DNA of 64,000 nucleotides from Patescibacteria group bacterium (GCA_035549315.1 DASZRC010000003.1:10374-74373); one strand, 5' to 3'; positions 122 to 528 are shown, counted from the first letter of the stretch. The notes: generated by a model not told the origin, from the letters alone. Numbers and translations: made by a program.

Positions 122-177
122 TTGGCGCGGTGGCCTGCCCGCTAATGCTAGCGCATAGCGTTGCAGGCGGGCGGAAT
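122..177 (+). pseudogene. Partial duplicate of the 5' end of tRNA-Leu (GGCGCGGTGGC ... GCGGAATGG) split by a 36-nt hairpin-like insert; no anticodon, T arm or 3' acceptor strand
   Basis: Positions 122-132 are identical to the first 11 nt of the intact tRNA at 447. After an imperfect inverted-repeat insert (CTGCCCGC...GCGGGCGG) the sequence resumes GCGGAATGG = tRNA positions 10-18, then diverges. Confidence 0.5.
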
Positions 178-208
178 GGCTTTCTAAGATTGTACAAGAT
201 TAGCTTCT

Positions 209-445
209 ATGTTTTATACTTATGTTTTAGAAAGTTTAAAAGATGGACTACATTATATCGGTTGGACAGATAACCTTAAACTAAGGTTAAAGAAACATAC
301 TGATGGTAAAGTTAAATCAACGAAAGACAGAAGACCTTTAAAACTTATATACTATGAGGCATGTATAAATAAAAACCGGGCGATAAAGAGAGAAAAATAT
401 TTTAAGACAGGATTTGGTAGGAGATTTTTAAAAGATAGAATTTAA
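209..445 (+). CDS. GIY-YIG nuclease superfamily protein (UPF0213/YhbQ-like, 78 aa)
   Basis: N-terminal YTYVLES...HYIGWTDNLKLRLKKH is the GIY-YIG motif. Size and layout match stand-alone YhbQ-like nucleases. Confidence 0.75.
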   Translation: MFYTYVLESLKDGLHYIGWTDNLKLRLKKHTDGKVKSTKDRRPLKLIYYEACINKNRAIKREKYFKTGFGRRFLKDRI

Positions 446-446
446 T

Positions 447-528
447 GGCGCGGTGGCGGAATGGTATACGCGATAGTCTCAAAAACTATTAGTCGCAAGG
501 CTGTGTGGGTTCGACTCCCACCCGCGCC
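447..528 (+). tRNA. tRNA-Leu (anticodon CAA), type II with long variable arm
   Basis: Cloverleaf folded by hand: acceptor GGCGCGG/CCGCGCC, anticodon stem ATAGT/ACTAT with loop CTCAAAA (CAA at 480-482), 15-nt variable arm, T arm GTGGG-TTCGACT-CCCAC, discriminator A. CCA is not encoded. Confidence 0.85.

Follow-up and report, generated by a model that had tools for sequence, protein, structure and literature searches.

A probable tRNA-linked hairpin-nuclease cassette in front of a tRNA-Leu gene of a Patescibacteria group bacterium

Introduction

Hairpin-associated single-domain GIY-YIG nucleases have been known since 2025, and the Ssn nucleases with their NTS/SRM hairpin repeats are the closest known system to the locus described here. 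This locus occupies positions 120-530 of a 64,000-nucleotide (nt) stretch of DNA from a Patescibacteria group bacterium (GCA_035549315.1, DASZRC010000003.1:10374-74373), the whole of which we call the window, and consists of a tRNA-Leu(CAA) gene that is preceded by a small GIY-YIG nuclease gene, a GC-rich hairpin and a copy of the tRNA's own 5′ end. SsnA of Neisseria meningitidis is a single-domain GIY-YIG protein of 94 amino acids (aa; CDD cd10448) that binds the NTS hairpin repeat in single-stranded DNA (ssDNA) and cuts upstream of it, a few nt away (Chenal et al. 2025, Nat Commun 16:2388, PMC11893778). In the same study 71% of the Ssn homolog genes had hairpins nearby and 42% had them on both sides, an architecture that the authors call identical to that of insertion sequences (IS); the mobility of such nuclease-plus-hairpin units, present or past, is raised there only as speculation, and neither tRNA nor Patescibacteria is mentioned (PMC11893778). 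In the Neisseria locus that we retrieved, the ssn gene (P0126, L205) is surrounded by dRS3/NTS cores. A paper on group I introns in the tRNAs of Patescibacteria (PMC13011429) treats a different phenomenon, and the term GIY-YIG is absent from it. For the tRNA-linked form, that is, cognate remnants, a hairpin within the remnant, empty and occupied sites and replacement of the tRNA allele, we found no description in the searchable literature.

We consider it likely that a tRNA-linked hairpin-nuclease cassette, widespread in Patescibacteria, is present here as one copy, and that the locus is the footprint of an insertion whose mechanism of movement we infer. The cassette would be made of a GC-rich palindrome and the gene of a 78-aa nuclease reduced to its catalytic domain, and has in all likelihood become lodged between the promoter and the body of the tRNA gene.

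Results

A copy of the tRNA-Leu 5′ end upstream of the nuclease gene

The cassette stands directly 5′ of an intact, co-oriented tRNA and is accompanied by an upstream copy of the first 18-39 nt of that tRNA (18 in the window). A repeat search aligned positions 120-134 (TATTGGCGCGGTGGC) with 443-457 (TAATGGCGCGGTGGC) at 14 of 15 nt, and 170-179 (GGCGGAATGG) with 455-464 exactly over 10 nt. The 11-mer GGCGCGGTGGC is found in the 64 kilobases (kb) only at 124 and 447, and an 11-nt match in the upstream 300 nt was reached in none of 200 shuffles of the 5′ 40 nt of the tRNA. A duplicated 5′ fragment of tRNA-Leu had been claimed in a first-pass annotation of the stretch, and is confirmed by these results. 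The copy of the D-arm start reported there is also present, but has 10 nt and not 9, and the imperfect hairpin of 36 nt said to separate the two copies is real, but has 38 nt and is precisely inserted into an otherwise contiguous remnant of 18 nt. In register with the tRNA, the upstream copy runs through nt 1-10, the palindrome and nt 11-18, after which the similarity ends (Table 1).

On the other side, the stop codon of the nuclease open reading frame (ORF) falls 1 nt short of the intact tRNA-Leu(CAA). This gene is the only ORF between the repeats, as had been claimed, and the repeated end of the tRNA is the 5′ end. Neither ARAGORN nor Infernal with Rfam at E<=10 scored any tRNA in positions 100-210; the suggestion of a degenerate second tRNA copy survives only in the sense of a remnant of a displaced or duplicated 5′ end, without a complete tRNA. 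An independent assembly, Logan SRR12170510 (L002), is identical to the window over 700 nt (L001 and L002 are the same sequence), so the locus is not an assembly artefact.

Recurrence in front of tRNA genes

A set of 80 loci from species-representative genomes, carrying homologs of 58-74% identity, was scanned for tRNAs. In 37 of the 80 a tRNA on the same strand begins within 20 nt past the stop codon, two of these (L036 and L060) having an overlap of tRNA and called stop, and another 13 loci have the tRNA 46-117 nt past the stop. By chance a tRNA would be expected in such a position for fewer than 1 in 1000 genes. The tRNAs that are linked to the cassette belong to 20 species. For the remnants, the first 40 nt of the cognate tRNA were searched for exact matches upstream of the ORF with p<=0.01 against shuffles, and 27 of the 48 testable loci, window included, were found to have a cognate match of 9-21 nt, while the controls (the 3′ 40 nt of the tRNA and the reverse complement) gave matches of at most 9 nt. 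The upstream copy starts at tRNA nt 1 or a few nt earlier and extends to nt 18-39; between its end and the ATG there are 0-29 nt in those homologous loci that could be resolved cleanly. In most loci, window included, the remnant is identical to the intact tRNA over the shared part, which fits duplication in situ or closely related donors. Several genomes (L012, L025, L044, L045 and L058) share the tRNA-Lys(UUU) arrangement in synteny. Taken together, the cassette recurs before at least 20 different tRNA genes across Patescibacteria and appears to be selfish. A strict co-phylogeny of ORF and tRNA identity was considered and dropped, the correspondence being partial only (best matches share the tRNA in 18 of 51 cases).

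A palindrome family tied to the nuclease gene

The remnant is interrupted in nearly all loci by a palindrome of 35-58 nt with the termini CCYGCCYGC...GCRGGCRGG. Within 200 nt of the ORF we counted 69 instances of this family (80 genome loci plus the window), against 17 matches to the pattern elsewhere in 468 kb, mostly spurious GC-rich ones. Excising the palindrome rejoins contiguous tRNA sequence with an ambiguity of 0-2 nt, so the insertion is precise and without target duplication. The GGC that is apparent at both ends in the window had been taken as a candidate target duplication by the hairpin, and was rejected because the overlap, compared over the loci, amounts to 0-2 nt and comes from the G/C ends of the palindrome. 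The insertion point within the remnant varies from nt 7 to nt 21. The distance from the end of the palindrome to the ATG, on the other hand, is always 10-38 nt across loci (38 nt for the window palindrome, itself 38 nt long), from which it follows that the hairpin and the ORF junction are coupled; this would fit a cut at a short fixed distance from the hairpin. The palindrome subtype also varies with the ORF clade, in that it agrees in 32 of 58 nearest-neighbour pairs, where permutation gives an expectation of 15.8+-3.9. The hairpin is therefore a conserved palindrome family tied to the nuclease gene and not an incidental spacer, and palindrome type and nuclease clade travel together. A fixed orientation of the hairpin relative to the ORF was also considered and abandoned, both orientations being found.

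Folded as DNA, positions 134-171 give -10.5 and -11.9 kcal/mol on the two strands (z of -2.1 and -2.4), and the RNA fold of positions 118-210 is no better than that of shuffles (z -0.23). At tRNA-Lys(UUU) the palindrome instead follows the ORF and precedes the tRNA, the 3′ GGG(C) of the palindrome serving at the same time as the 5′ end of the tRNA. In relatives outside Patescibacteria the same GC-rich palindrome encloses the ORF in its loop, so that the left arm precedes the ATG and the right arm follows the stop or overlaps it; the record labels are Desulfatiglandales (Desulfobacterota/Deltaproteobacteria) for L051, Bdellovibrionales for L018 and Proteobacteria for L067 (Table 1). In L051 two tandem solo hairpins precede the ORF, and hairpins nested in hairpins are found in L033, L038, L064 and L067.

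Palindromic inserts of other kinds were also seen in tRNA sequences. A dead tRNA-His remnant in L029 (2900-2945) has an unrelated palindromic insert, TTCCGACTACAGCAAAAGCAGTATGTCGGACA, at nt 6/7, and a second, dead copy of tRNA-Ala in L054 (400-450) has the palindromic insert TCCCAAAGGGATCCCTTCGGGAC in its D-loop. In these genomes, the 5′ regions of tRNAs seem to act as a general sink for inserted hairpins.

Empty sites, split alleles and tandem units

A metagenome scan for tRNA-Leu(CAA) with the D-arm of the window yielded 80 loci, 76 of them with enough upstream sequence. Only 2 of the 76 (L096 and L101) have a GIY-YIG ORF directly upstream and the remaining 74 do not; related tRNA loci without the cassette thus exist, and the comparison proposed in the first-pass annotation returned tRNA-Leu(CAA) sites of both kinds. 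L096 reads, in order, promoter, Leu nt 1-11, hairpin, nt 12-22, ORF, again Leu nt 1-11, hairpin and nt 12-24, then 20 nt and the intact tRNA, with the hairpin at the same tRNA position as in the window. Four syntenic empty sites (L084, L146, L102 and L150) share the upstream gene of L096, ending in the same codons, and have 33-74 nt with a -10 box before the tRNA. This short gap between promoter and tRNA implies that about 396 nt were added in L096.

Besides the upstream 5′ remnant, L003 and L019 have a 3′ remnant downstream of the intact tRNA. The acceptor strands of the two remnants are perfectly complementary to each other (GGATCCG/CGGATCC and GCCGGAA/TTCCGGC, respectively) and differ from those of the intact tRNA, which argues that the resident gene was split and that a second, full-length allele now stands behind the ORF. 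Further 3′ remnants are present in L004, L020, L021, L033 and L060, and tandem units in L006, L011 and L076. As to fragments without the nuclease gene, the only ones found are ORF-less units adjoining an ORF-bearing unit (L007, L020 and L096). The earlier proposal of an insertion or target-duplication footprint left by a small GIY-YIG element thus gains support from the 20 tRNA species, the empty sites, the tandem units and the split alleles.

A footprint of a different kind, unrelated to the GIY-YIG cassette, was seen in L143 (960-1010), where an inverted copy of a tRNA 3′ end (TGCCTGGGGAGAGACTCGAACT) lies upstream of an unoccupied tRNA-Leu(CAA).

The nuclease

The ORF (209-445, beginning MFYTYVL) matches the PF01541 GIY-YIG profile with 57.2 bits (cutoff 22.6, E 2.1e-15) over residues 1-69, which is the sole domain of the 78-aa protein. 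We collected 2251 homologs, mostly of 78 aa; those with a named source belong to Doudna-, Roizman- and Magasanikbacteria or to further Patescibacteria, with 65-79% identity. Conservation is strong (mean column identity 78%), and the residues Y3/Y5, Y16, G18, R26, H30 and E50 are invariant in an alignment of 22 sequences. The AlphaFold2 model has a pLDDT of 95.5 and the secondary-structure order E-E-H-E-H-H, and its best PDB folds by Foldseek are UPF0213 BH0048 (1zg2), Slx1 and the catalytic domain of I-TevI. A profile search of the PDB sequences gave 1zg2 (E 9.1e-9), 1ywl (E 3.2e-6) and Slx1 (E 0.0038). By pairwise comparison the ORF is 46% identical to Bacillus subtilis YazA of UPF0213 (E 5.6e-15) and 33% to Neisseria SsnA (P0126; BLASTP E 3e-8), while Ssn and YazA share only 27% (E 5e-6). 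When family profiles are compared, the window family and a Neisseria-centred Ssn alignment match with an hhalign probability of 98.1% (E 1e-13).

A classical multi-domain homing endonuclease of the I-TevI or Seg kind was rejected as an identity for this protein, given its 78 aa and catalytic domain only. With the group I intron endonuclease model TIGR01453 it reaches 18.5 bits against a cutoff of 56.05, matches to homing endonucleases in NCBIfam and PHROGs are sub-threshold only, and the plasmid and phage collections returned only distant matches of UPF0213 type. Of the homing-type element named in the first-pass annotation, the small GIY-YIG nuclease therefore stands, as a UPF0213/Ssn-like protein and not as a classical homing enzyme. 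In IMG/VR a single locus with the ORF was found among 2.9 million contigs. This sole contig labelled viral (L203, UViG_3300027819_000412, 144-500) has the tRNA-Lys(UUU) layout of ORF, hairpin and tRNA, reads like L044 upstream of the ORF and has chromosomal counterparts in L012, L025, L044, L045 and L058; it may be a chromosomal Patescibacteria contig instead of a virus.

A subfamily of GIY-YIG ORFs of 84-90 aa was observed in L043, L047, L049, L050, L078, L082 and L057, with record labels that include Moranbacteria, Saccharibacteria, Bdellovibrionales, Carboxylicivirga and others. On either side of these ORFs are AT-rich terminal inverted repeats (CACCCTGTYAAATAA-TTTTAAATTT ... AAATCTTATTTRACAGGGTRA), located about 25-35 nt before the ATG and at the last codons plus the stop, and no tRNA or GC-rich hairpin was found near the loci. 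The subfamily thus looks like another version of the same mini-element, with a second kind of hairpin or inverted repeat.

Promoters

Of 35 loci, 13 have a TGnTAnnAT or TATAAT box in the 45 nt that precede the remnant, compared with 3.4% of control windows (about 11-fold). The box before the remnant in L096 is the tRNA's own box in the empty sites. The best promoter candidate of the window, TTGATC-17-TATAAT at 47-75, likewise lies upstream of remnant, hairpin, ORF and tRNA. As the ORF has no room for a promoter of its own and the boxes are upstream of the remnant, the cassette appears to ride on the tRNA promoter, which would also explain the strict co-orientation. A second promoter-like motif, at 414-441, coincides with the conserved C-terminal codons GFGRRFLKDRI*; constraint on it at the nucleotide level was dropped as an argument, being inseparable from the coding constraint.

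Discussion

Proposed mechanism

By analogy with Ssn and NTS, the nuclease would recognise its own palindrome as a DNA hairpin and nick nearby. The breaks could then lead to recombination or gene conversion by which the cassette, sometimes with the adjacent tRNA gene, is copied into tRNA genes. A working copy of the tRNA would always be kept, because reduced genomes cannot lose it, and the remnant would mark the position of the old tRNA 5′ end. Transcription of the nuclease gene would start at the old tRNA promoter and pass through remnant and hairpin; the tRNA might be released from the same transcript, or else be transcribed from the promoter-like motif in the 3′ end of the ORF.

Several points weigh against this account. 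An empty site for the exact window locus was not found; no close relative of the window genome was retrieved, since no homolog was found for the 188-aa protein encoded next to the tRNA. In sequence the ORF is nearer to UPF0213/YazA, which is non-mobile and housekeeping-like, than to SsnA (46% against 33% identity), and the window palindrome is a single copy in 64 kb, where Neisseria has hundreds of NTS copies. The hairpin upstream of the ORF is found in both orientations, which is hard to square with an orientation-specific and strand-specific cut at a fixed side as made by Ssn. GIY-YIG enzymes hydrolyse DNA and cannot join it, and transposition would need host repair. The duplication of 25-45 nt (leader plus tRNA 5′ part) is left unaccounted for by the mechanism, as are the hairpin facing either way and the first colonisation of a new tRNA species. 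Lastly, neither nuclease activity nor a transcript or mobile intermediate has been seen.

Alternative explanations

A possible reading, towards which we lean less, is that palindrome and 78-aa nuclease form an autonomous hairpin transposon of non-HUH type which moves via ssDNA and recognition of the hairpin, specifically colonises the 5′ parts of tRNA genes so as to capture their promoters and becomes irremovable through tRNA replacement. The resident tRNA would here be destroyed by hairpin insertion and truncation, and the functional copy supplied or duplicated directly behind the nuclease gene; if true, this would amount to a tRNA-replacement addiction or drive in reduced genomes. We think it unlikely that the ORF is a classical freestanding homing endonuclease, which would cut double-stranded tRNA genes lacking the ORF, break repair then copying the ORF and co-converting the tRNA allele with the hairpin as passenger or scar. 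Distinct old and new tRNA alleles do stand beside the ORF in L003, L019 and L101, the GIY-YIG fold does resemble the catalytic domain of I-TevI, and T4 SegB is reportedly a precedent for homing in the tRNA cluster of T4. Yet the 78-aa protein is without a DNA-binding domain and stays below the TIGR01453 cutoff at 18.5 bits, and clean homing leaves neither target duplication nor remnants, which are the rule here. Also, almost all loci have the hairpin, whose type follows the ORF clade, and most remnants are identical to the intact tRNA, as in situ duplication predicts. Quite unlikely, in our view, is a circular unit of Campbell type (tRNA 5′ segment, hairpin, ORF and leader) that excises by recombination between remnant and intact tRNA and re-integrates at a tRNA 5′ end or at an att-like hairpin. 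The homology available for this is only 7-21 nt plus 6-17 nt, which is little for recombination by RecA, the cassette lacks a recombinase gene, no circular junction was observed, and the first colonisation of a new tRNA species would go unexplained. In favour of such a unit are head-to-tail copies that run from tRNA nt 1 to the leader (L006, L011, L076 and L096), ORF-less units beside ORF units that resemble excision products (L007, L020 and L096), and hairpin and tRNA flanks that are duplicated on both sides of ORF plus tRNA (L019 and L021).

A host function fits the evidence very poorly. The ORF would in that case encode a UPF0213/YazA-like housekeeping protein with a role in tRNA or RNA, co-expressed with tRNAs, and remnant and hairpin would be a regulatory or processing leader. 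Its absence from 74 of 76 related tRNA-Leu(CAA) loci, with syntenic empty sites, its occurrence with 20 different tRNAs, each with a cognate remnant, and the tandem copies, pseudogenised units and nested hairpins typical of mobile DNA all speak against such a role, and the two hairpin orientations argue against a leader acting at the RNA level. Pointing the other way are the closeness to B. subtilis YazA (46%), encoded in an RNA-modification operon where its gene overlaps with trmNF and rsmI, the strong conservation of the ORF (mean column identity 78%) and the syntenic tRNA-Lys(UUU) arrangement in L012, L025, L044, L045 and L058. Tandem tRNA duplicates do exist, for example the second tRNA-Ala in L054; that the window shows nothing but chance similarity, or a decayed tandem duplicate of tRNA-Leu unrelated to the ORF, is nevertheless hardly credible when the 64 kb contain no further copy of the 11-mer or the 10-mer, when none of 200 shuffles attained such matches, when the same design is seen in dozens of unrelated loci, and when the remnant always ends at or before about nt 39, abutting the ORF.

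For the tRNA-linked cassette that we prefer, the recurrence at tRNA genes offers comparative evidence that hairpin-associated mini-nucleases are mobile. The tRNA context acts as a built-in ruler, in that gain and loss can be read at base-pair resolution from remnants, empty sites, tandem units and split alleles, and the movement of nuclease-hairpin units is thereby made directly testable. The cassette also exposes a source of tRNA gene turnover, of tRNA pseudogene fragments and of contig breaks in Patescibacteria genomes, and natural hairpin/nuclease pairs with predicted GC-rich specificities could be material for the development of ssDNA tools.

Features of the window and its surroundings

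Table 1. Positions of the features discussed, counted from the first letter of the window, or of the named locus in the last row
Feature	Position	Strand	Evidence or remark
Leader-like TATT and remnant of tRNA-Leu nt 1-10	120-133	+	Remnant is 124-133, GGCGCGGTGG; direct repeat D1 with 443-457
GC-rich imperfect palindrome, 38 nt, CCTGCCCGCTAATGCTAGCGCATAGCGTTGCAGGCGGG	134-171		Nuclease-associated hairpin, between remnant nt 10 and 11
Remnant of tRNA-Leu nt 11-18, CGGAATGG	172-179	+	Direct repeat D4 (170-179 = 455-464); register analysis
Spacer or 5′ untranslated region, 29 nt, without tRNA similarity	180-208	+	Sequence
Single-domain GIY-YIG nuclease gene, 78 aa, stop TAA at 443-445	209-445	+	PF01541, E 2.1e-15
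Intact tRNA-Leu(CAA), functional copy	447-530	+	ARAGORN; Rfam tRNA, 61.8 bits
Sigma-70-like promoter TTGATC-17-TATAAT, candidate original tRNA promoter	47-75	+	Consensus scan, 10/12 matches
Promoter-like TTGGTA-16-TAGAAT within the last ORF codons, facing the tRNA	414-441	+	Consensus scan; speculative
Loci with the ORF in the palindrome loop	L018 183-440 with flanks; L051 ~2350-2800; L067 230-670

The window begins within the 5′ end of a peptidase M1 gene on the minus strand. The tRNA-Leu(CAA) at 447-530 does not encode its 3′ CCA and has CAAAA after the discriminator; a 3′ CCA is encoded in some intact tRNAs beside ORFs elsewhere, for example in L003 and L054. Rfam returned nothing beyond this tRNA and the one at 2368-2439, with E<=10 on positions 1-3000 and the gathering threshold on the whole window. 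The ORF of 188 aa that adjoins the tRNA-Leu (542-1108, minus strand) found no homolog other than itself in 5.8 billion proteins, and has a sub-threshold match to the YkoP domain (19 bits against a cutoff of 27).

Comparison with known systems

The likeness to the Ssn system lies in a single-domain GIY-YIG protein of about 80-95 aa and in a gene accompanied by an inverted-repeat hairpin of 20-50 nt, with relatives that have hairpins on both sides or around the ORF in an IS-like manner. The hairpin itself differs (CCYGCCYGC... in the window family, ATTCCCGCG... in NTS), as does its number, which is one per 64 kb in the window and hundreds per genome in Neisseria. The identity to SsnA is 33% and the window family is nearer to UPF0213/YazA. 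The systematic position before a tRNA, with a remnant of the tRNA 5′ end, is absent from the Ssn system as described.

REP/BIME-RAYT and IS200/IS605 (HUH) elements likewise pair a small nuclease gene with GC-rich extragenic palindromes, and share the precise insertion of hairpins without target duplication and the nesting of hairpin in hairpin. The fold in the window is GIY-YIG, however, which is hydrolytic and has no covalent tyrosine intermediate, and the element is confined to tRNA 5′ regions, whereas theirs are dispersed. With T4 SegB the cassette has in common a GIY-YIG gene beside tRNA genes and the replacement of a neighbouring tRNA allele. Seg proteins are larger, possess DNA-binding domains, cut double-stranded DNA and involve no target duplication or hairpin, and the window family, for its part, is essentially absent from viral contigs. 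Homing endonucleases of the I-TevI and Seg type combine a catalytic with a DNA-binding domain and exceed about 200 aa in total. In genomic islands that carry an integrase the tRNA 3′ end is repeated, while in the window it is the 5′ end and no integrase lies between the repeats. Fungal mitochondria have GC-rich palindromes and mobile GC clusters near or inside tRNA regions, in AT-rich genomes where GIY-YIG genes are found as well; there is no relation in sequence, and to our knowledge neither a fixed pairing with a mini-nuclease nor a tRNA 5′ duplication has been described for them.

UPF0213/YazA/YhbQ (1zg2, 1ywl; a branch that is Slx1-like) gives the best match in both sequence and fold, at the same size and with a single domain. 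The yazA gene, however, stands between trmNF and rsmI, genes of a conserved operon in which neither a hairpin nor a tRNA remnant was noted, whereas the window family is polymorphic in presence and absence, has tandem copies and 20 tRNA contexts, and is associated with hairpins. In a B. subtilis plasmid record (L206, NZ_AP028965.1, 362-661) yazA overlaps with both neighbours, the tRNA methyltransferase gene trmNF at its end and rsmI at its start, and this context could hint at an RNA-related role for the housekeeping branch. As far as sequence comparison can place it, the window family would stand between Ssn and UPF0213, nearer to UPF0213 in its sequence and like Ssn in its association with hairpins.

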